Assembly: GCA_016795345.1 (NCBI GenBank) | Contig: JAEUHO010000268.1 | Location: 1-42,439, forward strand | Reading direction: 5' to 3' | From: Planctomycetia bacterium | GTDB taxonomy: Bacteria; Planctomycetota; PLA2; JAEUHO01 | Length of the DNA: 42,439 nucleotides | Part shown: positions 16,764-36,919 of the stretch, in pieces | Numbering within the stretch: position 1 is the first letter of the stretch | How the letters are laid out: each line of letters begins with the position of its first letter | Made by a program: the position numbers and the translations under genes | The notes under the pieces: generated by a model | Told to the model about the DNA's origin: nothing | Seen by the model: only the letters and a program-made list of their open reading frames with translations | Database searches by the model: none

Positions 16764-16794
16764 TGGAACAAAGGGCTACGACCCGTTGTTCCAC
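16764..16794. repeat. Single copy of the hairpin repeat, 3' of the CDS ending at 16732
   Basis: GTGGAACAA-AGGGCTACGACCCG-TTGTTCCAC has perfect 9-bp arms around the conserved GGGCTACGACCC core. Confidence 0.85.
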
Positions 16795-16871
16795 AATCCG
16801 GGGGTGGCCGTTACGGGCGCGTTGCGGACGCGGGGGAGGGGACGCGAGGCCCGCCGGGTATCGTCGCGGGC

Positions 16872-18761
16872 ATGGAACGCCGGGGCCCCGCGATCCGCCT
16901 CCTGCTCGTCGTTGGCGCCCTCGTCGTCGCCTACGCGCTGGTGCTGCTGGTCTACGCCCTGCGGGGGCCCCGCATCGTCTATGTCGACGTCGAGCGTGAG
17001 GCCGCGCGCGGCGAAGGCGGCGCCCGGCCCGGCGAACGCGCGGTCCCGCCGCGGACGGCGGCGGAACCCGAGGACCGCCGCGGGCCGGGCCTTGCGTCCC
17101 CGAACCCCCGAGTTCCTCCCGAGGAGGTGCCGACGGCGGCCGACGCCGAGGCGGTCGTCGCGATGGACGGCGGAAGCGTCGTCGGGTTCGTGACCCCGGT
17201 GCCCCGTGACGGCGAGGCCCGTGCGCTCACGTTCCGGTGGCGCGACGCCAGCGGCGTCCACGACGTCGACGTCGCGCTCCGCCCGGACGGACGGTTCTCC
17301 CTGCGACTGCCCGACGCCGCCCTCGTCGGGAAGCTGACGGCGCGGGTCGGCGAGCACGCCGGATCGATCGGCGTCATGGGCCCTGGGGCCTACGTCGTCG
17401 CGGTTCATCACCGGGTCGCCGCGGTCGTTCGTGTCCTCGATGATCGCGGGGACCCGATCGTGGGCGCGAGCGTGCGAATCAACCCTCGCGACCACGGGGG
17501 CGAGTGGTTGACGACGGCCACAGGGCCCCGCGGCGAGGCCGCGATCGACGTGCGGCCCGGGACCGCGACCCTGGAGGTGTGGGCGATGGGGGCGGCCACG
17601 TCGACGCTGCCGGTCGAGTTCCGTGCGGGCGATCCGCCGATCGAGGTGCGGCTCGAGCGCCCGGTACAGGGCGTCGTGTACGTCGGCACGATCACCGACG
17701 AGCGGGGTCCGGTCACCGGGGCAACGGTGCGGCTCGATTCAGCCTACGGACTCCGATTCGTCGACTTTGACGAAGTGATGGTGGGCGGGCCCCGTCATGC
17801 GAGCGTCGGGCTCGAGGACGCGACGACCTGGGTGGACGGGCTCGACGCCGACGCCGGGGACGGCGTCGCGCGGACCGACGCCGCGGGTCGATTCACGCTG
17901 GCGCCGCTGATGGGTGAGCCACGGACCCTCTGGGTCGAGTTGCCGGACGGGAGCGAGGTCCCGGCGGATGTCGCGTGGGAAGCCGACGCGACCGGCGCGC
18001 GCGAGATGCGCGTGCGCGTGCCCGCGGCGCGGTGGGTCGAGGGCGTGGTTCGTCGCGGCGGCCGGCCCGTCGAGGGGTGGGAGGTCCTGTTCGGGGGGCG
18101 CGGACGGAGCGCCGGCCCCGTTCGGACGGCGGCGGACGGGTCGTTCCGATGCGCGATCCGCGGGGATCGTCGCGGGACGCCGTTCGTCCGCGGGCCCGAC
18201 GGTGAGGAACACCACACCGAGCCGCGGGACGGCCGATGGGAGTTCGACGTGCCGGCCGTCGGTCGGGTGCGGGGGCGTGTGCTCGATCGCGAGGGGCGGC
18301 CGGTCGCCGGCGCGGGCGTCGGCGTGAAGGACGCGCCGGCCGCGCTCCGGGCGACGACGGGTGCCGACGGCGCGTTCGACGTCGAGGTCGCGGTCGGCTC
18401 GGTGCGGTTGACCGCGGTGGCGAACGGGTACGCGCGCGCGACGAGCGCGGCCGTCGTGGTCGAGCCAGATCGGGTCGCGGAGCGCGACGTGCGCGTCGAA
18501 CCCGGTGGCCCGTTGGCCGGCCACGTGACGGACGCGTCGGGCGCGGTCCCGCCGGGGGCGACGGTGCGCGCGATCGGGAACGGGGGCATCCGCTCCGATC
18601 AGCGGGTGAACGTCGGCCCGCGCGGCCTCTGGCGGATCGACGATCTGGCGGGGACGTCGGCCGAGGTGACGATCTCGGCCCCCGGGCACGAATCGGTCGT
18701 GCTCCGGGACGTGAGGCCCGGTCGCCTCCTGCCCCCCGTCGTCCTGCGCCGCGCACCCTGA
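16872..18761 (+). CDS. Membrane-anchored protein with carboxypeptidase-regulatory-like repeats (paralogue of the upstream gene)
   Basis: 629 aa with TM helix IRLLLVVGALVVAYALVLLVYAL. Repeats include GRVRGRVLDREGRPVAGAGVGVKD...TTGADGAFDVEV and PLAGHVTDASGAVPPGATVRAIGNGG. Confidence 0.75.
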   Translation: MERRGPAIRLLLVVGALVVAYALVLLVYALRGPRIVYVDVEREAARGEGGARPGERAVPPRTAAEPEDRRGPGLASPNPRVPPEEVPTAADAEAVVAMDGGSVVGFVTPVPRDGEARALTFRWRDASGVHDVDVALRPDGRFSLRLPDAALVGKLTARVGEHAGSIGVMGPGAYVVAVHHRVAAVVRVLDDRGDPIVGASVRINPRDHGGEWLTTATGPRGEAAIDVRPGTATLEVWAMGAATSTLPVEFRAGDPPIEVRLERPVQGVVYVGTITDERGPVTGATVRLDSAYGLRFVDFDEVMVGGPRHASVGLEDATTWVDGLDADAGDGVARTDAAGRFTLAPLMGEPRTLWVELPDGSEVPADVAWEADATGAREMRVRVPAARWVEGVVRRGGRPVEGWEVLFGGRGRSAGPVRTAADGSFRCAIRGDRRGTPFVRGPDGEEHHTEPRDGRWEFDVPAVGRVRGRVLDREGRPVAGAGVGVKDAPAALRATTGADGAFDVEVAVGSVRLTAVANGYARATSAAVVVEPDRVAERDVRVEPGGPLAGHVTDASGAVPPGATVRAIGNGGIRSDQRVNVGPRGLWRIDDLAGTSAEVTISAPGHESVVLRDVRPGRLLPPVVLRRAP

Positions 18762-18764
18762 GTT

Positions 18765-18853
18765 GGAACAACGGGGCGACGACCCCGTTGTTTCGCGGTG
18801 GACGAGGGGGCCCCCGGTGCGCGTGGGAACGAAGGGCGACGACCCCGTTGCTC
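18765..18853. repeat. Two copies of the hairpin repeat, 3' of the CDS ending at 18761
   Basis: Copy 1 is 18765-18794, GGAACAACGGGG-CGACGA-CCCCGTTGTTTC (stem of 10 or more bp, 6-nt loop). Copy 2 is 18825-18853, GGGAACGAAGGGCGACGACCCCGTTGCTC (degenerate). Confidence 0.85.
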
Positions 18854-22564: not shown

Positions 22565-23538
22565 TGCGGCTTCCGGCGTTCAAGTACCTCGCGCCCCACT
22601 CCGTGGCCGAGACCGTCCTCATGCTCTCGAGCGAGGGCCCGGGCGCGACCGTCGTCGCGGGCGGGACCGACCTCTACCCCAACATGAAGCGGCGTCACCA
22701 GGTGCCGAAGACCGTCGTCTCGCTGCGGCGCGTCGCGGACCTCCGCGGCACCCACGCGGGCGCCGACGGCTCGCTCCGCATCGGCGCGAGCACCACGCTC
22801 ATGGCCCTCGAGCGCGACGCCCGCCTCAAGGCCGAGCGTCCCGCGCTGTGGGCCGCCGTCCGCTCCATCAGCACGCCCGTGCTCCGCACCATGGGCACCA
22901 TCGGCGGCAACGTCCTCCTCGACACGCGCTGCAACTACTACGACCAGAACCTCGAGTGGCGCCGCGCGATCAACAACTGCCTCAAGTGCGAGGGCGACAC
23001 CTGCTGGACCGCGCCGGGCAGCGACCGCTGCTGGGCCGTCAACAGCAGCGACTCCGTCCCCGTGCTCATCGCGCTCGGCGCCCGCGCGCGCCTCTCGAGC
23101 CCGCGCGGCCACCGCGAGGTGCCCGTCGAGTCGCTCTACCGCGACGACGGCATCTCCTACCTGACGAAGGACCACGACGAGGTCCTGACCGAGCTCGTCC
23201 TGCCGCCGGTGGGGCCCTGGAAGAGCCACTACGGCAAGCTCCGCCGCCGCGGCACCTTCGACTTCCCGGTCCTGGGCGTCGCGACCGCGCTCCGCTTCGA
23301 CGGCGACCGCGTGGCCGAGGCGCGCATCGTCCTGAACGGCGTGGGTTCCTCTCCGCTGCGGTGCACCGAGGCCGAGGGCTTCCTCCTGGGCAAGCGCATC
23401 GACCCCGAGACCGCGAAGGCGGCCGGCGAGATCGCCTTCCGCCCCGCGAAGCCGCTCGACAACACCGACTTCGAGAACGCCTGGCGCAAGAAGATGGTCA
23501 AGGTCTATGTTCGCGACGGCCTTCTCGCCGCCAAGTAG
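22561..23538 (+). CDS. FAD-binding medium subunit (HcrB/CoxM-like) with an extra Cys-rich insert
   Basis: ATG 22561 overlaps the upstream TGA (ATGA). The FAD-binding motif is VVAGGTDLYPNMK. The insert is CNYYDQNLEWRRAINNCLKCEGDTCWTAPGSDRCWAV (Cys124/140/143/148/157). Confidence 0.9.
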   Translation: MMRLPAFKYLAPHSVAETVLMLSSEGPGATVVAGGTDLYPNMKRRHQVPKTVVSLRRVADLRGTHAGADGSLRIGASTTLMALERDARLKAERPALWAAVRSISTPVLRTMGTIGGNVLLDTRCNYYDQNLEWRRAINNCLKCEGDTCWTAPGSDRCWAVNSSDSVPVLIALGARARLSSPRGHREVPVESLYRDDGISYLTKDHDEVLTELVLPPVGPWKSHYGKLRRRGTFDFPVLGVATALRFDGDRVAEARIVLNGVGSSPLRCTEAEGFLLGKRIDPETAKAAGEIAFRPAKPLDNTDFENAWRKKMVKVYVRDGLLAAK

Positions 23539-23539
23539 G

Positions 23540-23647
23540 GCGACCGAAGGGCGGGCGGGCCGAGACTTCGCGACTGCGGGGCTAGCGTACGCAAGGAGTA
23601 CGCGTCGCCCCGCATTCGCTCGTGCGGCCCGGCCGCCCTTCGGTCGC
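23540..23647. repeat. 108-bp near-perfect palindromic element (long hairpin) immediately 3' of the FAD-subunit gene
   Basis: Outer arms are GCGACCGAAGGGCGGGCGGGCCG (23540-23562) and CGGCCCGGCCGCCCTTCGGTCGC (23625-23647), matching 22/23. Inner arms are GCGACTGCGGGGC / GCCCCGCATTCGC, and the apical stem is GCGTAC-GCAAGGA-GTACGC. A partial direct copy of the right arm (TCGCTCGTGCGGC...CTTCGGTCGC) recurs at about 23666-23700. Confidence 0.85.
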
Positions 23648-23879
23648 TGACGTCGGACCGTGAGGAGACGCCACGCTCGCTCGTGCGGCGCTTCGGTCGC
23701 TTCGTTGGGCGGCGTCGCAGGAGCAGAGCCGAGAGCGACGCGGGGCGGCGGCAGGGAGCGGTCGAGAGTTCGGGACGGCGAGGCCCGGCGGCCGTTCGTG
23801 TGCCAGCACGGAACCGTGCGGGCCGATGCTCATGGTCACTCGACGTCTACGCTCGGCTCGCGCGTACACCGACACGGCC

Positions 23880-24470
23880 TCAACGCGGCGCACGCAGCGA
23901 GGCCATGGCGCGGATCGTCCCGGCGAGGCTGGGGCTCCGAAGCGCGGCGCGATCGGGAACCCAAGCCGTACCCACGAACTCGAGCAGCGTCGAGACGTAG
24001 CCGGGGCCCACGGCTACTGCGGAGCCCGCCGGCGGCGGAACGCCCTCGCGGATGTGGCGGTGCGTGGACTCTCGGCAGAGGTTCAGCAACGTCTCCTTCG
24101 GCCGGGCGAGCGACTCGGGCTGGACCGGAATCCGAGGCGCGCTGACGCCGAAGAAGGCGCCGAACGCTACGTGATCCGCAAGAAGCCAACTCTCGACGCT
24201 CCTGACCGCGATCCGGAGACGAAAGGAAGCCGTCGGAGTCTCCGAGAGCGAGCGAAGGAAGGACGGCGCACACTCCGCGCTCTGGTCGAGATCCCAGACG
24301 ACCAGCCAGGGTGAATGCCGTGCCGCCTCGGCGTAGGCTCGGAGTTTCGCGAGCAGTTTCTCGCGGCCACGGGCCGGGTACGCGCGACCGACCACGACGC
24401 CGACGTGCGCGGCCACCCGGCGAAGGACGGCGTCGTCCGTCTGACCTTCTACCGCGATGCTAATCTCCAT
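23880..24470 (-). CDS. Small Toprim-like protein (DUF4276/DUF4435-style), partner of the upstream ATPase
   Basis: 196 aa. The N-terminus MEISIAVEGQTDDAVLRRV supplies the Toprim-type strand plus catalytic Glu. SPWLVVWDLDQ is a DxD-type acidic motif. The ATG at 24468-24470 overlaps the ATPase gene's 3' end by 11 nt. Confidence 0.65.
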   Translation of the reverse strand: MEISIAVEGQTDDAVLRRVAAHVGVVVGRAYPARGREKLLAKLRAYAEAARHSPWLVVWDLDQSAECAPSFLRSLSETPTASFRLRIAVRSVESWLLADHVAFGAFFGVSAPRIPVQPESLARPKETLLNLCRESTHRHIREGVPPPAGSAVAVGPGYVSTLLEFVGTAWVPDRAALRSPSLAGTIRAMASLRAPR

Positions 24471-25620
24471 CGTCCGGTGCGTCCGAGAAGAGCGACAGTT
24501 GCTCTAGGCGCCGCGGCGCGGTGGCGGGGACCACTGCTTCGGCCAGGGACGCTCCACCAGCGATCAGCGCGGCGATCTCCTTGTCGTCCGCGCTTACGGC
24601 GACGTCGGTTCCGTTGTCCGTCGGGCTGAGGAGCAGGACCTCTTCAGGGGCGATGCCCTCGTCCACGAGCAGATCTGGAGAGTGCGTGCTGACGATCACT
24701 TGGCGCCCCCGCTTGCGCGTGAGACGCCAGAACATCGCCGGCAGCAGACGGACGACGGCTGGATGCAACGACAGTTCCGGTTCCTCGAGCAGCAGCGGGC
24801 CCGACCCATCCGAGAGTGCCCAGAGGAGGCCGATGAGGCGAAGGGTCCCGTCGGAGAACTGGTCCTCCGACTGCCAACCGGCGCCCGGACGCCAGTGCTC
24901 ATACCGCGCCCGAAGGTGCGGGCGCCCGGCGACGTCGCGGTCAACGCTCAGACTCGCGAACTGAGGAACCGCGACGCGCAGGGCTTCCCCGATGCGCGCG
25001 AGTCTCTGCTCGAGTCGTCGTGGATCGCGAGCCTTCATGTGCGCCAGTTGTTCGAGGAAGTCGGCTCCGAACGGATCCTGTTCGACCCGGCGGACGCGTT
25101 CGGGTTCACGGATCAGGTGCGGCACGAGATGCAGGTACCGGATGCTTGCGAGGGCTTCTGCGACCGCGCGAAACCGCACGTTGGCGCTGGTGCTCTCGAG
25201 GTGGGTCTCCGTCAGGCGTTTCGGGTCGCCGGCATCCTGGGCGTCCGGCCTCGAGTCGATCAACTCGTCCCCATGCCAGACGCGCTCCTGCTTCACCACC
25301 GGGATCTCGTTGTTGTCCTGGCTGAACCGGAGTTCGTAAGTCCACTGGTCGGTCTCTGCAAACTCGATCGCGACGCGGATACAGACGTCCGAGGGTTGCC
25401 GTGCGTGAAGGCACCGAATGGCGGACAGCCCTCCCCGAACCGAGACCGCGCGCTGGAACGTGCCTTCGGGATGCGCGACGTCGCGCAGGAAGCGAAAGGC
25501 ATCGAGGAGATTCGACTTGCCCGACGCATTCGGTCCGGCGAGGAAAACTCGACGGCGGAGCGCAACGTCGACGGTTCGGAAGTTCCGCCAGTTCTCGAGG
25601 AAGATGTGCAGGAACCGCAT
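24460..25620 (-). CDS. ABC/SMC-like ATPase (AAA_15/AAA_21-type), OLD/AriA/GajA-like N-terminal module
   Basis: 386 aa. MRFLHIFLENWRNFRTVDVAL..VFLAGPNASGKSNLLDAFRFL carries the Walker A at residues 29-36. GTLRLIGLLWAL is signature-like. LLLEEPELSLHP is the Walker B/D-loop and VIVSTHSPDLL the H-loop. Confidence 0.8.
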   Translation of the reverse strand: MRFLHIFLENWRNFRTVDVALRRRVFLAGPNASGKSNLLDAFRFLRDVAHPEGTFQRAVSVRGGLSAIRCLHARQPSDVCIRVAIEFAETDQWTYELRFSQDNNEIPVVKQERVWHGDELIDSRPDAQDAGDPKRLTETHLESTSANVRFRAVAEALASIRYLHLVPHLIREPERVRRVEQDPFGADFLEQLAHMKARDPRRLEQRLARIGEALRVAVPQFASLSVDRDVAGRPHLRARYEHWRPGAGWQSEDQFSDGTLRLIGLLWALSDGSGPLLLEEPELSLHPAVVRLLPAMFWRLTRKRGRQVIVSTHSPDLLVDEGIAPEEVLLLSPTDNGTDVAVSADDKEIAALIAGGASLAEAVVPATAPRRLEQLSLFSDAPDDGD

Positions 25621-25761
25621 TCGCGTTGCTCGCCGGAGAGCGGGAAGTCTATCACGCGGTCGGCCGAGCGGGCTCGATGCTGGCGGCTGGCGGTGACCAC
25701 CGGCCGGTTGACCCGGGAGGACGCCGCGAGGCCCGTACGGGCCAAGTACGGGTCGTCCCGA

Positions 25762-27096
25762 TCAACGTGAGGGCTCCGGATGCGGTCTGGCGGGTGAAGT
25801 TCCCGAGATGGCGCGAGGCGCGGCGAGGAAGCGGCGCTCGACGAGGGTGTGGAAGGGGAGCGCGACCAGGAAACAGGCGGCGACCGTCGCCGCGGCGGAG
25901 GCGTAGAGGAGCGGACCGTGGGCCAGCGCCCGCGGGACGACGAGGCCCGCCACGAGCATCACCACCGGGAAGTGCGTCAGGTAGAGCGAGTAGGAGCGCT
26001 CGCCGACCCAGGCGAGCCCGCGACCGAGGGGGGACGAGGCCAGCCGGTCGTCGTGGGGGAAGAGCGCCACGAGGAGCGCCGCGAACGCCAGGCAGACGAG
26101 CGAGGTCTTCGCATCCTGCGGGAACCCGTCGCCGCCCACGCGGAAGGCGAGCACGTACGCCGCGACGGCCGCGACGAGGCCGACGTCGAGGAGGAGGCGG
26201 TCGCGGCGCGTCGGGGCCGACGTGAGCCGCGCGTGGACCCAGAGGCCGCAGAGGAAGTCGGGCCAGAGGTCGAGGAGGAAACCCCGCGGGCGCAGCGAAG
26301 GCACCGCGCGCACGAGCACCGCCGCCGCGGTCGTCGCGACGGTCGCGACGACGCGGGTACGGCGACCGCGCGCCACCCACGCGAACGCCACCCACGCGTA
26401 GAACGGCACCTCGTAGCAGAGCGACCAGAGCGGGCCGTTGGCCCCGTAGTCGGGGTCGATGCCGAACGTCTTGAGCGACGTCTCGACGAGCAGCAGGCTC
26501 GAGAGCCAGTGCCAGCCCGCCGCGAACGGGTCGAAGAGACGCGCCGAGAGGCCCGCGGCGGCGAGCCCGGCCACGACGAGCCCGATCGCCGCCGCGAGCG
26601 CCGTCGCGGCCCAGAACGTCGGGAAGATGCGCCGGGCGCGCCGGCGGAGGAAGGTCGCGGCGGCCGCCGGGCCTCGCGTGCCCCGCGCCGCGGCCGCGAT
26701 GCAGGCCCCGCTCACCACGAAGAAGAGCTGCACGCCCAGGAAGCCCCACTGCTCGAGCCACCGCAGCGGCCGGTACGCGAGGCCCGCGTGCGAATCGCCG
26801 AGCAACACGCCGCCTGGAGCCCATTCCAATGGCCTCCCTGCTGCGCCCGGCGATCCTCTCGCTGCGGCGGGCTTGCTAGCCGATCAGCCCCTCAACGGGT
26901 CAGGAACCCGTCTCCGGGGCTTCTCGGCTGCGCTTGCCCGCCTCGCGTCGGTCTCGCCGGGCTCGCGACGGGCACCATTGGAATGGGCTCCTGGGTGGAA
27001 CCCGAGGACCGCGAGGCACGCGACGCCGCGCCACGCGTCGAGCGACGCGTAGCGCCACGGGGCGGCGGGCGGCGGGGACGGGGCCGCGGCGGGCAT
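25762..27096 (-). pseudogene. Acyltransferase family 3 (OafA-like) gene interrupted by a MITE insertion
   Basis: The N-terminal fragment (27096 down to 26884) reads MPAAAPSPPPAAPWRYASLDAWRGVACLAVLGFHP, then runs into element sequence and a stop. The C-terminal fragment is ORF 25762..26829 (TTG inside the element, then GGVLLGDSH...WGFLGVQLFFVVSG...). Removing 177 bp restores one in-frame ~385-aa acyltransferase-3 protein with about 10 hydrophobic helices. Confidence 0.8.
26818..26994. mobile_element. MITE-like palindromic insertion (172 bp plus 5-bp target-site duplication)
   Basis: Perfect 15-bp terminal inverted repeats are AGCCCATTCCAATGG (26818-26832) and CCATTGGAATGGGCT (26975-26989). 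They are flanked by the direct repeat CCTGG (26813-26817 and 26990-26994). The interior is largely self-complementary, with the dyad centre at the ACGGGT/ACCCGT stem (26895-26911). Confidence 0.8.
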
Positions 27097-30189: not shown

Positions 30190-31062
30190 ATGACGCCCGC
30201 CGCCCCCGACGACCGTCCGCGTGCCGACTCGCCGACCGCGGTCGCGGACCGCATCCTCGCGGAGGCGCGCGCCCCGCGCCGCCCGCGACGGATCGCGTGC
30301 CTCACGGAGGAGACGGTCGAGATCCTGTACGGGCTCGGCGCCGGCGACCTCGTCGTCGGCGTGAGCAAGTACGTCGAGCGGCCGCCGGAGGCGAAGCGGA
30401 AGCCGCGGGTGTGCGCGTTCGTGAAGGCCGACTTCGAGGCGGTGGCGGCGGTGGAGCCGGACCTCGTGCTCTGCTTCAGCGACCTGCAGGCGGAGATCGC
30501 CGCGGAGTGCGCGCGGCGCGGCATGAACGTCGTCGTGTTCAACCAGCGCAGCGTCGCGGAGATCCTCGGCGTGGTGCTCGCCGTCGGCGGGCTCGTGGGC
30601 CTCGAGGCGCGGGCGCGGGCGATGGTGGAGGCGCTGACCGCGCACGTGGGGGCCGTGGCGGAGCGGGCCTCGCGTCTCCCGAGGCGGCCGCGTGTCCATG
30701 TCGAGGAGTGGGACGAGCCGCTCATCACGGGGATCCGCTGGGTGGCCGAGGTCGTCGAGCTGGCGGGCGGCGCCTACCTCTTCCCGGAGCGCGCGGCGGG
30801 GGCGGCGGCCAAGGAGCGGATCGTCGCGCCGGAGGAGGTCGTCGCGCGGGATCCCGAGGTGATCCTGGCGTCGTGGTGCGGGAAGACGGTGCGGCTCGAC
30901 GCGATCCGGGGGCGACCCGGCTGGGACCGGACGGCGGCGGTGCGCGCGGGACGGGTGTTCGACGTGTCGCCGACGATCCTGCTCCAACCGGGGCCGGCGG
31001 TGCTGACGGACGGCCTCGACGAGGTGCACCGACTCATCGCGGGGGCCGTCGCGGGCCGATAG
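30190..31062 (+). CDS. Periplasmic-binding-protein type 2 (BtuF/cobalamin- or iron-siderophore-binding-like), no obvious signal peptide
   Basis: In-frame ATG 30190 within ORF 30124..31062. RIACLTEETVEILYGLGAGDLVVGVSKY...DLVLCFSDLQ...VHVEEWDEPLITGIRWVAEVVELAGG matches the Peripla_BP_2 layout. Confidence 0.7.
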   Translation: MTPAAPDDRPRADSPTAVADRILAEARAPRRPRRIACLTEETVEILYGLGAGDLVVGVSKYVERPPEAKRKPRVCAFVKADFEAVAAVEPDLVLCFSDLQAEIAAECARRGMNVVVFNQRSVAEILGVVLAVGGLVGLEARARAMVEALTAHVGAVAERASRLPRRPRVHVEEWDEPLITGIRWVAEVVELAGGAYLFPERAAGAAAKERIVAPEEVVARDPEVILASWCGKTVRLDAIRGRPGWDRTAAVRAGRVFDVSPTILLQPGPAVLTDGLDEVHRLIAGAVAGR

Positions 31063-31279
31063 GGGGGGACCGGGGCGGGGCCCTCCGCCGGCCGGGCGGG
31101 TGTTCGTGTCCCGTCCGGGCCGCGGAAGCGAGACCGCTTCAGTTCAAGGGGAGCGCACGTCGATAGCGACTCGGCGTCCCCGGGTTCGGAACCCGCCGGG
31201 GGTGCCCACCCCCGGGTGTGCCGGGGGCGTCCGCCTTCCTGTCGCGCGGGCTAGAGTCCCCTCGGACGCGTGCGCAGGG

Positions 31280-32725
31280 ATGCGGTGGGTTCCGCGAGGT
31301 CCCGCCGTGCTCGCCGACTCCCCTGCGTCCCCCCGTCCGGCCGTCCGACGGGCTCCGCGTCGCCGCGCCACCCGCCTCGCTCCCCGCGGCATCGCGCTCC
31401 TGTGGGCCATGCTCGCCGCCATGCTCGTGGCGGGGATCGTCGTCGCGGGCACCCACAGCCAGCTCGCGGTGGACCGCATGGGCGACGCCGAGTTCGCCGC
31501 CGAGGGCCAGGCCCGCGCGGTCGCCGAGGCCGGGCTCATCGACGCGCTCGCGTGGTTCCGCCGCCAGCAGACGCAGCCCGTGACGACGTTCGCGCCGCAG
31601 CGCAACCTCGCGCTCAACCCGGTCGTCAACGAGACCGACGACCCCGCGATCGGCCTCGTGCGCGAGTACGAGATCATGCCGTCGCTGTGGGGGCGGTACG
31701 AGGTGCGCAAGCCCGTCGCCGCCGAGGCGTGGACCGACACCAACGCGAACGGTCGCTACGACTACGGCGAGACGTTCACCGACACCGACGGCGACGGCAA
31801 ACGCGACCCGGCCCGCGAGACGCGCGACGTGTCCACCGAGCGCGGGTTCGCGGGCGCGGGCACGGTGTGGCGCATCGTCGCCCACGGCCGCGTGTACCGC
31901 CGCCGCGACGCGGCGCAGCCGCTCGGGTCGGCGGTGAACCCGCGGCTCGCCGGCGTGACCGTGGCGGCGGAGATCCGCCGCTTCGTGATGGTGCCGCCCG
32001 CGGTGGCGGCGCTGTGCGTGAAGACGGCCTCGACGACGGTGATCGGCACCCGCACGCGCATCGTGGGCGGCAGCAAGGGCGGGCTCATCAACAAGTCGAG
32101 CACCGGGACGGCGAACACGACCGGCGCCGAGATCACGGGCACGCCGGCCAAGGGCACGATCACGTCGTACGACGACACGACGGAGACGATGTTCGGCGTC
32201 ACGCTGCCCGAGCTGAAGGCCATGGCCGACGCGTCGTGGGCGTCGGCGGCGAACTTCCCGAAGAAGATCGGCGACTTCACGCTGAACGTCGTCCCGGGCC
32301 CGATCACGTTCGACGACGCGCGGCCGCTGCGCGGCACGGGCATCGTCGTCGTCGACGGCAACGCGACCTTCAACGCCGGCAACAACTCGTTCTTCAACGG
32401 CATGCTCGTCGTGCGCGGCAACCTGACGCTGCGCGCGCCGGTGTACTTCCGCGGGACCGTGGTCGTGACCGGCGCCGTCGACATGTCGGGCACCGGCGGC
32501 GACTACAGCGAGCTCAACTACGACGCCAACATCCTGACCGAGGTGCTGACGATCCTCGGCCAGTACCGCTTCTCGACCGCGACGTACCTGCAGGCCAACG
32601 TCCTGCCGGACGGCACGCCGGACGAGGAGGACCTCGTCTACCTGCAGCACCAGGGGAAGACGCTGCCCGGGACGCCGATGCCCTCGGCGCTCGACGACAG
32701 CCTCCCGCCCCCCGGCATGAGCTGA
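31280..32725 (+). CDS. PilX/GspK-like minor (pseudo)pilin-type protein
   Basis: In-frame ATG 31280 within ORF 31100..32725; the start is uncertain. The hydrophobic N-terminal helix RGIALLWAMLAAMLVAGIVVAG is followed by AEGQARAVAEAGLIDALAWF (PilX_N/GspK-like). There is one D-x-N/D-x-N/D-G pair (TDTNANGRYDYGETFTDTDGDGKRD). The C-terminus is beta-helix-like: VVVDGNATFNAGNNSFFNGMLVVRGNLTLRAPVYFRGTVVVTGAVDMSG. Confidence 0.6.
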   Translation: MRWVPRGPAVLADSPASPRPAVRRAPRRRATRLAPRGIALLWAMLAAMLVAGIVVAGTHSQLAVDRMGDAEFAAEGQARAVAEAGLIDALAWFRRQQTQPVTTFAPQRNLALNPVVNETDDPAIGLVREYEIMPSLWGRYEVRKPVAAEAWTDTNANGRYDYGETFTDTDGDGKRDPARETRDVSTERGFAGAGTVWRIVAHGRVYRRRDAAQPLGSAVNPRLAGVTVAAEIRRFVMVPPAVAALCVKTASTTVIGTRTRIVGGSKGGLINKSSTGTANTTGAEITGTPAKGTITSYDDTTETMFGVTLPELKAMADASWASAANFPKKIGDFTLNVVPGPITFDDARPLRGTGIVVVDGNATFNAGNNSFFNGMLVVRGNLTLRAPVYFRGTVVVTGAVDMSGTGGDYSELNYDANILTEVLTILGQYRFSTATYLQANVLPDGTPDEEDLVYLQHQGKTLPGTPMPSALDDSLPPPGMS

Positions 32726-32743
32726 GCCGAACGGAGCCCCCCC

Positions 32744-35700
32744 TTGAACCCCGCCACCTCCCGACCCGGCTCGACCCCGAGGAGTCCTCGCGTGACCCGC
32801 ACCCGCCACCGCCGCCGCGGCTTCTCGCTCCTCGAGATGCTCATCGCCGGCACGATCATCGCGGTCGTCGGCATGGCCGGCGCCGCCTACGTCTCGCGCT
32901 CCACGCAGGGCGCGGACTGGTCGCGCGACCGCGTCTTCGCGCGCCAGAAGGCGCTCTCGATCCTCTCGGAGCTCAAGTCGTTCGTCGAGGGCTCGGCCAA
33001 CCAGACCGCCGACGAGCTCGACGGCTTCGACGACGGGTTCACGTACAACGCGTCGCTCACCATCGCGCCCGACCCGGTGAACCCGGAGGTGCTCGCCGCC
33101 CCGGCGCACCCGCTCTCGGGCAACGTGGCCGAGGGCACGACGGAGTGGCGCTGGTACCGCCAGATCTCGGTCCGGCGCTTCACGGGCGTGATCACGCGCG
33201 ACCTGCGCATCTGCACGGTGCGCGTCTACCGCCACCGCGCCGGCGGCTCGGTCCCCGGCGAGCAGATGGCCGAGGTGTCGTCGGTCGTGCGCACCGTCGC
33301 CGACTCGTACCCGACGAGCCAGGTCTACGACGTCTACCTCCTCGCCCTCGAGAACATCCCGGGCTGGTGGGTGTACATGGACGCCATCAAGCCGTTCGTG
33401 GACGCCACGCTGCAGGACCTCGAGGCCCGCAACCCCGGCCTCGTGTTCCGCACGCACTGGATCACGACGAGCGGGTACGGCCGTGACGAGGAGTACGCGC
33501 CGTACACCAACGAGACGCGCATCAGCACCGACAACACCCCGTGGGGGTACGTCTACCCGGGCAAGATGCCCGGCGGGCTCGCGGCGAGCCGGTACTACGT
33601 CCCGTCCGGCATCCGGGCGCGCGTGAACCTCGACGGCGAGTACACCCCGGCCTTCCAGAACGGCTACCGCACCGCGGAGCCCTTCGCGGACGGCAACGGG
33701 AACGGCACGTACGACTGGAGCGAGACGTACACCGACACGAACGGCAACGGCGCGTGGGACGGGGCGCTGGCCCACCCGTACGCCTTCGCCGACCAGCACA
33801 ACCACGCGATGCGGTGGCCGGACGAGGACGCGAAGTTCAGGGCCCGCGTGGCCGCCGGCCTCGACACCGACGACACGCCGACGTACCGCCTCCTGCTCGA
33901 CCGCATGATCGCGGACCCGACGCGGTTCCACAACGCGATCTTCATCAACCTGCACGGCGAGCTGCTGCCGATGCCGGCGGTCCGCAACTACTCCGACGCC
34001 GCCAAGGACCCGGTCAACCTGCCCGGCTGGCGCTGCGTCACGCATCCCGAGACGCTGCTCGTGCGCCGGGTCGCGGGCGAGTCGCAGCCGGTGGCGACCG
34101 CCGCGCGCTGGCGCGTGTACGCCTACAAGACCGAGTTCCCGACGACCGAGCCGATCATGACGCTCCGGGAGCCGATCAACGACGTCAACGCGAACGGTCA
34201 GTGGGACGCCGGCGAGCCCTACCAGGACTGGAACGGCAACGGCAAGCACGACGGCATGACGCCGATCCTCGTCGAGCTGGCGGGCGTCGACGCCACGGCG
34301 GCGGTCAACGCGGCCTCGAGCCCGTCGCTCACCGTGAAGTTCCTGGCGGGCGGCGTCGACGCCGACGGCAGCGGCGCCATCGACCTCTACCAGCCCTGGA
34401 CCAACGGGCGGACCTACCCCGAGGCGTGGACCGACGCGAACGGCGACGGGAAGTTCAACCGGAGCGAGGAGTACTTCGACGCCAACGGGAACAACCAGTA
34501 CGACGCCGGCGAGCCGTGGATCGAGGTGGACGGCAACGGGGTCCGGACGGCCTCGACCGAGGCGTTCGTCGACGCGAACGCCAACCTCCGTCCCGACCTG
34601 ACGGATGCGCCGGCCGACGTCTACACCGACGCGAACGCGAACGGGAAGTGGGACCCGGCCGAGCCGTACATGGACGTCAACAACAACGGCATGCGCGACG
34701 GCCCGACCGCCGCCGTGTTGCCCTGGCGCGCGTGGAACGCGGCGGTGGACAACGTGAACCCCGCGACGCGGAAGGCGTACGCGGACGCGTACGGCGAGCC
34801 CTACCGCGACGTGAACGGCAACGGCGTCTGGAACGCCGCCGAGGTGCTGCTGTACGACAACAACGGCAACGGCGTCTGGGACGGCGGCTACCGCCGCGGC
34901 GAGATGTGGTTCCGGACCCGCCTCGACGCGACGACGCAGACGACGATCCTCGAGCTGTACGGCACCCCGCTGTACGCGGGCGAGACCGGCGACAACCGCG
35001 GCCTCGACGCCACGCAGCGCCTGTACGACCTCGAGTACATCCCGTGCCCGACGCCGGGCACGGCCTCGTCGTCGGCGCCGGCGTTCGAGCGCGACCTCTA
35101 CAACAGCACCGCCGACGTCCCCAAGAACACCGCGCGCTGGACGATCGAGGTCCCGATGGCGACGCTGAAGTCGAAGCTGGCCCTCCCGGCCGGCGCGAAC
35201 AACGGCGACACCATCGACCGCATCCTCGAGGTCCGCACGCGTTTCGGGACCGACCTGACGACGGGCGCGATGTACCCGGTGCGCAACGCCCCAACGAACC
35301 TCTCGAAGGCCTACGCGTACTTCTACAACCTCTCGACGAAGATCCCGTTCTCGGAGCGGTACCAGTTCCAGGGCGACCCGCGCCACAGCCCGTACGCCGA
35401 CACCGCCCGCTACGGCACCACGTTCCCGCACGGGCACAACTGGTACTTCGACAACTTCAACGGCGCCGTCGACGCCCGGCCGAAGTGGCTCGGGTTCGAC
35501 ACGGCGCGGTTCGCCGACGGCTGGACCGGCGCGCAGCAGCTCGACACCGCGCGTTACTTCCAGTGGATGCGCACCGCGGTCACGACGACCGAGGCGGTCT
35601 ACACGACCCTGACCGGCTTCTCGTACTTCTACCTGTCGGTCGGCGGCGACGTCGGCTACGACTCGGCCAACGGGTTCGCGAGCTCGATCCCGATGAACGG

Positions 35701-36919
35701 CACGCCGTTCGGGAACACGTCGGCCTCGGTCTACGAGGACACCATCGCCGGCGGCGGCACGTCGGGCATCGGCGGCAGCCAGAAGTACCTGCGCGCGAAC
35801 GACGGCTCGACGGGGTCGATCCGTTCGGGCGGGCACTGGTGGAGCAAGCCGTGGCTCGGCGAGCTCTGGCAGGACGCCGCGTACAACAACCAGTGGGCGC
35901 AGTGGGGCAACCTCCGCGCGACGAGCGACGCGACGCCGCAGACCTATCGGCTGCTGCGGCGCGGTAGCGTGCCCTCCGCGCAGCAGCCGGCGGGCACCGC
36001 GCTCGCCAACCGCTCCGCCCGCACCGGCGAGCCGGGCTCGACGTCGTACTTCAACATCGGGACCTCCGGCTCGACGTTCCACCACCAGTACCGCGACGGA
36101 CAGACGGGCAATCTCACGGGCGACGGGACGCAGCTCGCGACGAACTACAACTTCCCGTTGCCCACGTCGGCGGCCATCAGCCGGCCGTTCGCGCTGGCCA
36201 CGAACGTCGACGGCGGCCTTGGCAGCGAGTTCTCGTACAACACGGAGTACCCGAAGTTCACCGCGGCGAAGGTGGTGGACTTCTACAACCACGCCGGCGG
36301 CACGCTCGGCAGCGCCCTGGTCCGGCACGTGGACCCGACGGGCACCAAGGCCTCCCACGTCGTGGTCAACGGCATCGACCGCACGGTGGGGTCGGGCTCG
36401 GCGTTCATCGCCCGCTACTCGCTCATCACCCTCGTGCACGCGGTGTTCGCGGCGGGCCTCGCCGGCCCGGGACGCGTCAAGCAGCTGCCGCGCGTCCAGA
36501 TCACGTCGCCGACGATCGTGACCGAGCTCTACGACCCCGCGGCCATCGCCATCCAGTGGAAGAGCGAGTGGAAGCGCTGGGACGGGCTCAAGTACACGGC
36601 GGCGTACGCGACGACGTTCGCGGAGACCGAGAGCGACCTCGCGTACGTGCTCCTGCTGTCGCGCGACGGCGGCAACTCGTGGACGAACCTCAAGACGGGC
36701 GCCCCGGCCACGCCGGGCGTCCTCCCGCGGACGGCGCTCGGCGCCATCGACCTGACGAGCATCTGGGTCGACGCGGGCTCGGGGAACGAGTCGTGGACGT
36801 GGAACACGCCGGCGGCGTCGTATCCCGAGGGCTCCTACTTCATCCGGATCGAGTGCTTCCGCCAGACCGAGAACCTCCACTACTCCTTCCACCAGGAGAA
36901 GATCTATGTCAACCGCTGA
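32744..36919 (+). CDS. Giant prepilin-type N-terminal cleavage/methylation-domain protein (~1,375-1,391 aa) with multiple Ca-binding-like D/N-x-D/N-G repeats
   Basis: The class III signal is RHRRRG|FSLLEMLIAGTIIAVVGMAGAAYV (Gly -1, Phe +1, Glu +5). There are two candidate starts, each 7 nt after a GGAG: TTG 32744 and GTG 32792. The GTG gives a 10-aa leader. The long body is non-repetitive and protein-like, with about 10 DxNxNG-type loops. Confidence 0.85.
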   Translation: MNPATSRPGSTPRSPRVTRTRHRRRGFSLLEMLIAGTIIAVVGMAGAAYVSRSTQGADWSRDRVFARQKALSILSELKSFVEGSANQTADELDGFDDGFTYNASLTIAPDPVNPEVLAAPAHPLSGNVAEGTTEWRWYRQISVRRFTGVITRDLRICTVRVYRHRAGGSVPGEQMAEVSSVVRTVADSYPTSQVYDVYLLALENIPGWWVYMDAIKPFVDATLQDLEARNPGLVFRTHWITTSGYGRDEEYAPYTNETRISTDNTPWGYVYPGKMPGGLAASRYYVPSGIRARVNLDGEYTPAFQNGYRTAEPFADGNGNGTYDWSETYTDTNGNGAWDGALAHPYAFADQHNHAMRWPDEDAKFRARVAAGLDTDDTPTYRLLLDRMIADPTRFHNAIFINLHGELLPMPAVRNYSDAAKDPVNLPGWRCVTHPETLLVRRVAGESQPVATAARWRVYAYKTEFPTTEPIMTLREPINDVNANGQWDAGEPYQDWNGNGKHDGMTPILVELAGVDATAAVNAASSPSLTVKFLAGGVDADGSGAIDLYQPWTNGRTYPEAWTDANGDGKFNRSEEYFDANGNNQYDAGEPWIEVDGNGVRTASTEAFVDANANLRPDLTDAPADVYTDANANGKWDPAEPYMDVNNNGMRDGPTAAVLPWRAWNAAVDNVNPATRKAYADAYGEPYRDVNGNGVWNAAEVLLYDNNGNGVWDGGYRRGEMWFRTRLDATTQTTILELYGTPLYAGETGDNRGLDATQRLYDLEYIPCPTPGTASSSAPAFERDLYNSTADVPKNTARWTIEVPMATLKSKLALPAGANNGDTIDRILEVRTRFGTDLTTGAMYPVRNAPTNLSKAYAYFYNLSTKIPFSERYQFQGDPRHSPYADTARYGTTFPHGHNWYFDNFNGAVDARPKWLGFDTARFADGWTGAQQLDTARYFQWMRTAVTTTEAVYTTLTGFSYFYLSVGGDVGYDSANGFASSIPMNGTPFGNTSASVYEDTIAGGGTSGIGGSQKYLRANDGSTGSIRSGGHWWSKPWLGELWQDAAYNNQWAQWGNLRATSDATPQTYRLLRRGSVPSAQQPAGTALANRSARTGEPGSTSYFNIGTSGSTFHHQYRDGQTGNLTGDGTQLATNYNFPLPTSAAISRPFALATNVDGGLGSEFSYNTEYPKFTAAKVVDFYNHAGGTLGSALVRHVDPTGTKASHVVVNGIDRTVGSGSAFIARYSLITLVHAVFAAGLAGPGRVKQLPRVQITSPTIVTELYDPAAIAIQWKSEWKRWDGLKYTAAYATTFAETESDLAYVLLLSRDGGNSWTNLKTGAPATPGVLPRTALGAIDLTSIWVDAGSGNESWTWNTPAASYPEGSYFIRIECFRQTENLHYSFHQEKIYVNR

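Follow-up and report, generated by a model that had tools for sequence, protein, structure and literature searches.

A solitary HEC-01-type gene pair on a recently acquired 1.93-kb cassette in a Planctomycetota-like chromosome

We analysed a 42,439-nt contig of a Planctomycetia bacterium (GenBank JAEUHO010000268.1, assembly GCA_016795345.1; the whole stretch is hereafter called the window), focusing on two overlapping genes that encode an ABC-type ATPase and a small Toprim-like protein. Judged by its sequence, the pair is a HEC-01-type module, both proteins matching the HEC-01 models of PADLOC-DB (v2) over their full length, and it reached this Planctomycetota-like chromosome recently and horizontally, as a two-gene cassette of ~1.93 kb. 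Since PADLOC already holds clade-specific models for the pair, we report a new member of a known candidate type: the pair is already catalogued as the candidate system HEC-01 and is not a new type of system. A preliminary description of this DNA, based on its letters and open reading frames (ORFs), had stated that the pair corresponds to no named system, a claim that does not stand in view of the full-length HEC-01 models available for exactly this clade. We read the pair as an ATP-controlled nuclease that would defend its host against phages, with a probability of roughly 0.6. The data directly support that the pair belongs to the family, that the two genes stay paired and co-evolve, that their catalytic residues are conserved, that the acquisition was recent and that there is a partial association with the helicase-methylase-ATPase system Hma.

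HEC-01 was described as an ABC ATPase with a TOPRIM protein among the candidate systems found embedded in Hma (Payne et al. 2024, bioRxiv 10.1101/2024.01.29.577857). We checked the pair for three features, namely a match to the HEC-01A model, a match to the HEC-01B model, and adjacency with co-direction of the two genes, and found all three. Embedding in Hma, which guided the discovery of HEC-01 and is optional for its detection, is not seen for the window copy.

The two proteins and their relatives

The genes lie next to each other on the same strand, point in the same direction and are read as a co-transcribed pair:

24460–25620, (−) strand: gene of the ATPase HEC-01A, 386 aa (ORF, PADLOC model HEC-01A PDLC04180 and Pfam AAA_21)
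23880–24470, (−) strand: gene of the small partner HEC-01B, 196 aa (ORF and PADLOC model HEC-01B PDLC04194)
24460–24470, (−) strand: 11-nt overlap ATGGAGATTAG of the ATPase stop with the HEC-01B start

The overlap, already pointed out in the preliminary description, is confirmed by the sequence and suggests that translation of the two genes may be coupled. The same description had judged by eye that the pair is poorer in GC than its surroundings; this proved correct (0.66 and 0.69 for the two genes vs 0.736 for the window), and the contrast is sharper for the GC content at third codon positions (GC3), which reaches 0.79 and 0.80 in the pair vs 0.94–0.99 in all twelve other genes measured.

HEC-01A is an ABC-type (Rad50/PtuA/GajA-like) ATPase, with an ABC fold and the full set of motifs. 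Its translation displays the Walker A motif G29PNASGKSN37 (K35; G29–S36), the ABC signature S256DGT259, the Walker B/D-loop L276LLEEPELSLHP287 (L278–H286) and the H-loop S311THSP315 (H313–S314). Three of these, Walker A, Walker B/D-loop and H-loop, had been noticed at the outset; all four are at least 95% conserved in 74 gene pairs of the family, so their presence is not a matter of chance. The protein matches the PADLOC HEC-01A model PDLC04180 with an E-value of 1.1e-147 (490 bits), residues 1–377 of 386 covering model positions 1–380 of 382, and it falls in Pfam AAA_21 (6.9e-35, 122 bits vs a cutoff of 27), AAA_15 also being assigned. An AlphaFold2 (AF2) model with a mean predicted local distance difference test score (pLDDT) of 86 and a predicted template modelling score (pTM) of 0.85 retrieved, about equally well, PtuA of Septu, Rad50, PtuA-like ATPases associated with retrons, and GajA in Foldseek searches (E 5e-13 to 1e-10, template modelling (TM) score ~0.5); no AriA chain was among the top 50 structural matches. 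The ATPase family is very large, with at least 8000 candidates at E ≤ 1e-20, and relatives are annotated in their sources only as 'AAA family ATPase' or 'predicted ATPase'.

HEC-01B matches the PADLOC HEC-01B model PDLC04194 with an E-value of 1.1e-54 (residues 3–193 on model positions 6–198 of 204) and two further PADLOC HEC-01B models at 1e-46 and 1e-40, while NCBIfam offers no model for it. As first described, the protein opens with a strand followed by a glutamate, in MEISIAVEGQTDD (M1 to D13, including E8 and D12), and contains the acidic motif W59DLD62; a further motif reads R86-I-A-V-R90..E93..D99. E8, D12, D60, E93 and D99 are at least 95% conserved and D62 80–95% conserved in the 74 pairs. 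In a set of 131 representatives, E8, D12, D60, W95, D99 and G155 are invariant, and D62, C67, R86, E93 and K125 are at least 90% conserved. The acidic metal-binding set (E8, D12, D60, D62, E93 and D99) thus appears intact, and HEC-01B is a putative metal-dependent nuclease.

The relationship of this protein to Pfam families is remote. The match to DUF4276 (PF14103; E 0.019, 15.6 bits) lies under the gathering cutoff of 30.2, that to DUF3226 is likewise sub-threshold, and a sub-threshold DUF4276 match recurs in 17 of 19 members of the HEC-01B family. The HEC-01B of Pseudomonas agarici is a genuine DUF4276 member (41.2 bits vs the same cutoff of 30.2), and hhalign aligned our 131-sequence HEC-01B profile to it with a probability of 85% (E 5.9e-6); both share a DxD motif, a cysteine five residues further on and the pattern R-I-A-x-R-x-x-E-x-x-x-L-A-D. 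Together with the absence of any DUF4435 match, this bears out the earlier suggestion that the partner resembles DUF4276 proteins rather than AriB. Searches of PDB sequences with the 19- and 131-sequence profiles and with the single sequence (E ≤ 10) returned no match.

DUF4276 and RloB have been placed in the Toprim superfamily, whose signature is a glutamate after strand 1 and a DxD after strand 3 (PMC12065111). The AF2 model of HEC-01B (pLDDT 87.6, pTM 0.84) combines a beta-alpha x4-type core (beta-alpha-beta-alpha-beta-alpha-beta) with a helical C-terminal half; its strands span residues 2–7, 26–32, 55–60 and 83–88, with E8 directly after strand 1 and D60-L-D62 after strand 3. The predicted structure of a HEC-01B protein has also been superposed on the metal site of the Burkholderia pseudomallei OLD nuclease (Payne et al., bioRxiv 10.1101/2024.01.29.577857). 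Because of the motifs, the strand pattern, the remote DUF4276 homology and the published superpositions, we assign HEC-01B to the Toprim proteins as a probable member.

For their assays, Payne et al. (bioRxiv 10.1101/2024.01.29.577857) used the HEC-01 archetype of P. agarici NCPPB 2472 (WP_060782633.1 and WP_060782632.1, the latter annotated as 'DUF4276 family protein'). The window pair has the same architecture and gene order, an ATPase with a Toprim-like partner, but it is solitary, its partner stays below the Pfam DUF4276 threshold and its clade is far from the P. agarici pair: the B proteins share 34% identity over 53 aa, and the A proteins align only at the N- and C-terminal ATPase motifs.

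The preliminary description had also proposed a split-OLD or PARIS-like module, which holds as an analogy. In PARIS (AriA/AriB, OLD class 4), an ABC (AAA_15/21) ATPase and an effector of the Toprim superfamily are likewise encoded by two genes, probably with the same logic of sensor plus nuclease. As a classification the proposal fails, in the absence of any DUF4435, Toprim_OLD or AriB match and with an ATPase no nearer to AriA than to PtuA, Rad50 or GajA. AriB has ~306 aa vs 196 aa for HEC-01B, which gave no match to DUF4435 or AriB models of Pfam and PADLOC at E ≤ 1. The PADLOC AriA model PDLC02980 matches HEC-01A at 1.5e-32, over the residues (26–318) that the generic AAA_21 profile also covers and far below the HEC-01A score, and AriA from the PDB aligns with it at E 1e-4 through the C-terminal ATPase motifs only. 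PARIS is moreover described as frequent in viral genomes (PMC11464382), whereas the window clade was not found in phage collections.

The other ATPase–Toprim systems compare in a similar way. P2 Old and Gabija GajA (OLD classes 1–2) also join an ABC ATPase to a Toprim nuclease whose acidic metal site is conserved; in comparisons with HEC-01A, GajA and OLD match weakly by sequence and GajA clearly by structure. Both are fused single polypeptides, in contrast to the two genes of the window, where HEC-01B gave no match to Toprim_OLD (PF20469) and no GajB/UvrD-type helicase gene lies beside the pair. AbiL (AbiLi/AbiLii) and RloA/RloB pairs combine an AAA_21-type ATPase with a small (~200 aa) RloB-like Toprim partner. 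HEC-01A matches the PADLOC AbiLi model (E 1.3e-21) and HEC-01B matches neither AbiLii nor RloB models at E ≤ 1, which leaves the pair outside AbiL; the likeness of HEC-01B to this group is structural alone, the top BFVD Foldseek match being a full-length alignment with a RloB-like phage protein (TM 0.50/0.47, probability 0.93) at a non-significant E of 0.075. As to MADS, the PADLOC mad3 model matches HEC-01A nearly over its full length (7.6e-20) and Mad4 is a DUF4276 homologue (PMC12065111); the NCBIfam MAD3 model (NF047739) gives HEC-01A 74.7 bits vs a cutoff of 420, HEC-01B has no mad4 match, no methyltransferase gene lies nearby and the window has no other mad match, so that MADS is not recognised. 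An ATPase with a small Toprim protein is thus an architecture also known from AbiL, MADS Mad3-4 and some Menshen variants. PARIS, OLD/Gabija, AbiL, MADS and formal Pfam DUF4276 membership were all rejected for the pair, which resembles split ATPase–Toprim systems in its presumed logic and belongs to no named, characterised one.

The empty site and the flanks of the cassette

The evidence for acquisition comes from a close relative. The molybdopterin subunit encoded in the window shares a ≥ 90%-identity cluster with a protein from the Planctomycetota metagenome-assembled genome (MAG) GCA_046350655.1, whose 683-kb contig (hereafter L166) is collinear with the window at 89–96% nucleotide identity. 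In L166, the flavoprotein and acyltransferase genes that flank the pair in the window are spaced by 128 nt only and the HEC-01 pair is absent. Host homology stops at position 23794 of the window and restarts at 25724, which delimits the cassette:

23795–25723, no strand assigned: window-specific segment of ~1.93 kb with the two genes, a ~85-nt 3' tail and a ~100-nt 5' leader; missing from L166
23778–23787, (+) strand: left copy of GCGAGGCCCG, a motif present once at the empty site; target duplication or microhomology possible
25726–25735, (+) strand: right copy of GCGAGGCCCG, within the 12-nt CCGCGAGGCCCG (25724–25735) that is identical to L166 13506–13517

The empty site in the collinear L166 and the foreign GC3 of the pair together show that the cassette was acquired horizontally. 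A precise loss in L166 is formally possible instead of a gain in the window; composition argues for gain. The 10–12-nt repeat flanking the cassette is not significant (567 of 2000 shuffles gave an equal or better repeat), no terminal inverted repeats were found at its ends (798 of 2000 shuffles), and the segment contains no integrase, transposase or recombinase gene. The ~100-nt leader presumably carries the promoter. Scans of positions 23400–26000 gave no sigma-70 promoter-like site and a single terminator-like site not above chance, and an Rfam scan of the whole window gave no match. A metagenome scan with the flavoprotein had found only distant relatives (≤ 72% identity), the better empty site being that obtained through the cluster look-up. 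In one of these relatives (locus L086, 194–2512; flavoprotein 72% identical), the next gene after that of the flavoprotein encodes a SpoIIE-type phosphatase, and both the acyltransferase and the HEC-01 pair are missing from the interval. From this arrangement, the interval between the flavoprotein and SpoIIE genes appears to be a site of recurrent gene gain and loss.

The pair sits alone between a metabolic operon and a disrupted gene, as first described. One flank carries a TetR gene and, after it, dehydrogenase genes for the Fer2, molybdopterin and flavoprotein subunits, which run convergently to the pair. On the other flank, upstream of the pair and on the same strand, lies an Acyl_transf_3 gene interrupted by an element resembling a miniature inverted-repeat transposable element (MITE):

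26816–26991: MITE-like element of 176 bp with perfect 17-nt terminal inverted repeats GGAGCCCATTCCAATGG; once in the window; missing from L166

This element sits ~35 codons into the acyltransferase gene, and the ORF of the window starts inside or just after it.

A 108-nt palindrome at 23540–23647 had been taken as a border of the pair. The palindrome itself is real: it occurs once in the window, its 23-nt arms (23540–23562 and 23625–23647) are 96% complementary, and it folds as a single hairpin (−93.9 kcal/mol, z = −7.4). We rejected it as a border of the cassette: the hairpin is nested, its inner stem-loop is kept at the empty site (L166 13414–13470), and host-type sequence continues for ~150 nt past it, up to 23794. 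Only the outer 23-nt arms and ~90 nt to their right, including a third partial arm copy at 23688–23714, are window-specific. The inner stem-loop probably terminates transcription of the dehydrogenase operon, and the whole hairpin looks like a small palindromic element that has grown around, or been inserted into, this pre-existing terminator.

The other neighbours in the window include a HAMP-SpoIIE phosphatase, gyrA, an M48 peptidase and CarboxypepD_reg proteins. Over the compared stretch the window and L166 show at least three differences, counting the HEC-01 cassette and the MITE-like element; another is a non-aligning segment (window 16793–18775 vs L166 6837–8633) that encodes a 698-aa CarboxypepD_reg-repeat protein in the former and a 541-aa TPR protein in the latter. 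Two ORFs of 572 and 1397 aa with the composition of the host (31007–32725 and 32726–36919; GC3 0.94–0.98) have no Pfam or PADLOC match at the thresholds used, and the second is kept in L166 as a 1391-aa gene call; both are large conserved proteins without assigned function.

Pairing, distribution and defence context of the family

A word-indexed search yielded 20 homologues of HEC-01B, and an exhaustive profile search extended the family to at least 3065 clusters at 50% identity (E ≤ 1e-3), 1336 of them with E ≤ 1e-30. A pattern scan with one genome per species located relatives in 382 genomes, from phyla that include Acidobacteriota, Chloroflexota, Planctomycetota, Proteobacteria and Nitrospirota. 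Outside chromosomes, the clade gave one match in PLSDB, on a Ralstonia megaplasmid.

Conservation of the neighbourhood, proposed in the preliminary description as a check of the two-gene module, was borne out: 77 of 80 loci have, directly upstream of the partner and in the same orientation, the gene of an ATPase 43–59% identical to that of the window; of the other three loci, two are truncated by a contig end. The junctions between the two genes mostly range from −8 to +14 nt (73 related loci). In the 74 pairs, sequence identities among the A proteins track those among the B proteins (r = 0.855, a value reached by none of 2000 Mantel permutations), which indicates that the two genes are inherited and evolve as one unit.

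An orphan HEC-01B was observed in locus L045 (9998–10594). This 198-aa protein, with its catalytic residues intact, is encoded without an ATPase gene, and a divergently oriented gene for an M20 peptidase lies 134 nt away; locus L016 carries a full HEC-01 pair between the same two neighbours. The ATPase thus seems to have been cleanly deleted in L045 and the nuclease gene tolerated alone.

Hma genes surround the pair in 18 of 80 loci and in 9 (21%) of the 43 loci whose two flanks each extend for 4 kb or more. The usual layout has HmaA (SNF2 helicase and NOV_C domain) directly upstream, with HmaB (DUF1156 methylase) and HmaC (DUF499) downstream on the same strand. The link of the family to defence, which the preliminary description had proposed to verify, is hence real and rests mostly on embedding in Hma; most copies, including that of the window, are solitary. 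The few defence neighbours seen at the sampled non-Hma loci were MzaE, a TIR protein resembling ThsB, IetA together with a subtilase, an ATPase resembling AriA, mad2 and mad8.

At locus L006 (6643–8793), in a gammaproteobacterial MAG, the next protein upstream of the HEC-01 pair is an MzaE match (E 2.4e-87). A 583-aa AriA/AriAB-like ATPase (AAA_15 and AAA_21; PADLOC matches to AriA, NsnB and AriAB) is encoded downstream of the pair at three loci (L012 15618–17282, L067 18194–19855 and L080 10927–12678), two of them embedded in Hma, which suggests stacked ATPase-based modules.

These distributions bear on two other explanations. The first sees HEC-01 as an accessory that works only with Hma, the solitary copy of the window being a non-functional or decaying remnant. 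HEC-01 was indeed first found embedded in Hma (bioRxiv 10.1101/2024.01.29.577857), and each of the 18 Hma-associated pairs is placed, in the same orientation, between HmaA and HmaB/HmaC. However, 34 of the 43 well-flanked loci are without Hma genes, the ORFs of the window are intact and keep all conserved residues, and no Hma genes came with the cassette, which arrived there as a unit. Embedded cassettes were treated as independent by Payne et al. (bioRxiv 10.1101/2024.01.29.577857), in whose hands other HECs worked alone. We consider this explanation improbable.

The second would make the pair a housekeeping factor of DNA repair or recombination, in which a Rad50/RecF-like ATPase would work with a Toprim nuclease. 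The ATPase has Rad50 among its nearest structural matches (E ~6e-13), and its N-terminal part also gives weak matches to RecF and SMC_N. But a housekeeping gene pair is hard to reconcile with its absence from L166 in an otherwise identical gene order, with its foreign GC3, with a patchy, cross-phylum distribution or with the embedding of about a fifth of the loci in defence systems; the ATPase model has no coiled-coil insertion, and no Mre11-like partner is seen beside the gene. A repair function is therefore very improbable.

A gated nuclease and its rivals

In the reading that we prefer, HEC-01A and HEC-01B would form a complex in which HEC-01A senses an invader or a stress signal through ATP binding and hydrolysis and thereby gates the HEC-01B nuclease; the latter would cut nucleic acid of the invader or of the host (DNA, or tRNA/RNA), and propagation of the phage or plasmid would stop. 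OLD, Gabija, PARIS, AbiL and MADS Mad3-4 all share the scheme of an ATPase-controlled Toprim nuclease (PMC11464382). We infer for this clade the formation and stoichiometry of the complex, the nuclease activity, its substrate, its trigger and the defence phenotype.

Several results weigh against this reading. In Foldseek searches with the HEC-01B model, neither the PDB nor BFVD returned a match at E ≤ 0.001 (best E ~0.07); in the PDB, AriB came out at E 0.13, the Toprim domain of TopoI at 0.3–0.5 and PH0156 with a TM score of 0.42, and CheY-like receiver and PurE-like folds scored about level with Toprim. The Toprim fold, whose verification by modelling had been suggested, is therefore in agreement with the motifs, the strand order and the RloB-like match at TM 0.5, but it lacks a significant structural match, and for this clade it is probable rather than as solid as the wording of the literature implies. 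The window clade was not found in IMG/VR or among GenBank phages. The window copy lies outside any defence island, ten further proteins of the window having no meaningful PADLOC match, and few of the 124 neighbour ORFs sampled at 33 non-Hma loci match defence models at E ≤ 1e-10. Finally, the P. agarici HEC-01 was not protective in E. coli MG1655 against a subset of BASEL phages (bioRxiv 10.1101/2024.01.29.577857), and the orphan of L045 argues against a constitutively toxic effector restrained by the ATPase.

This last point concerns how the two proteins would work together. In one variant of the gated nuclease, the ATPase would sequester and release the effector, in the manner of toxin-antitoxin pairs; it draws on the RloB-like TOPRIM_OLD proteins, which are toxic in E. 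coli and neutralised by AAA partners (PMC10440598). The other variant, activation that depends on the ATPase, is favoured by the intact orphan HEC-01B: its tolerance in L045, unlike the neutralisation of RloB-like toxins, gives a hint of activation, rather than sequestration, of the nuclease by the ATPase.

The same observations apply to a selfish addiction module, with a Toprim toxin and a neutralising ATPase, that would persist through post-segregational killing more than through antiviral benefit. Such a module would fit the toxicity and neutralisation reported for the RloB-like proteins in E. coli (PMC10440598), as well as a small, solitary, horizontally moving unit of two genes that overlap and co-evolve. 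It fits less well with an orphan that persists without its ATPase while keeping intact catalytic residues, with an ATPase that retains all catalytic motifs, needless for a plain antitoxin, and with the near absence of the clade from plasmids apart from the one megaplasmid match. Addiction as the main role is in our view unlikely, although addiction and abortive-infection defence are not mutually exclusive.

A bolder form of the preferred reading would make the solitary chromosomal clade a self-sufficient immune system mechanistically unlike PARIS, Gabija and OLD, in effect a fifth OLD-like class of ATPase–Toprim systems with the smallest known effector, in which a HEC-01A ATPase of the PDLC04180 type is joined to a 196-aa partner missed by Pfam DUF4276; we regard it as doubtful.

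HEC-01-type pairs are abundant. The published assays of two other members conflict: in contrast to the P. agarici pair, one randomly chosen HEC-01 from a cold seep was reported to protect E. coli B from one or more of T4, T5 and T7 (Nature Communications 2026, PMC12881386), and neither result carries over directly to the clade of the window. The comparison of L166 with the window is a clean natural experiment, in which close relatives differ at that site by exactly the 1.93-kb cassette. It defines a minimal transferable unit of two genes with a ~100-nt leader and a ~85-nt tail, and the exact limits of this unit, together with the natural empty-site comparison, are the most useful new facts of this work. 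The picture of bacterial immunity is unchanged; a catalogued candidate is found to occur also as a stand-alone islet outside defence islands, which bears on the weight given to defence-island context when such candidates are judged.

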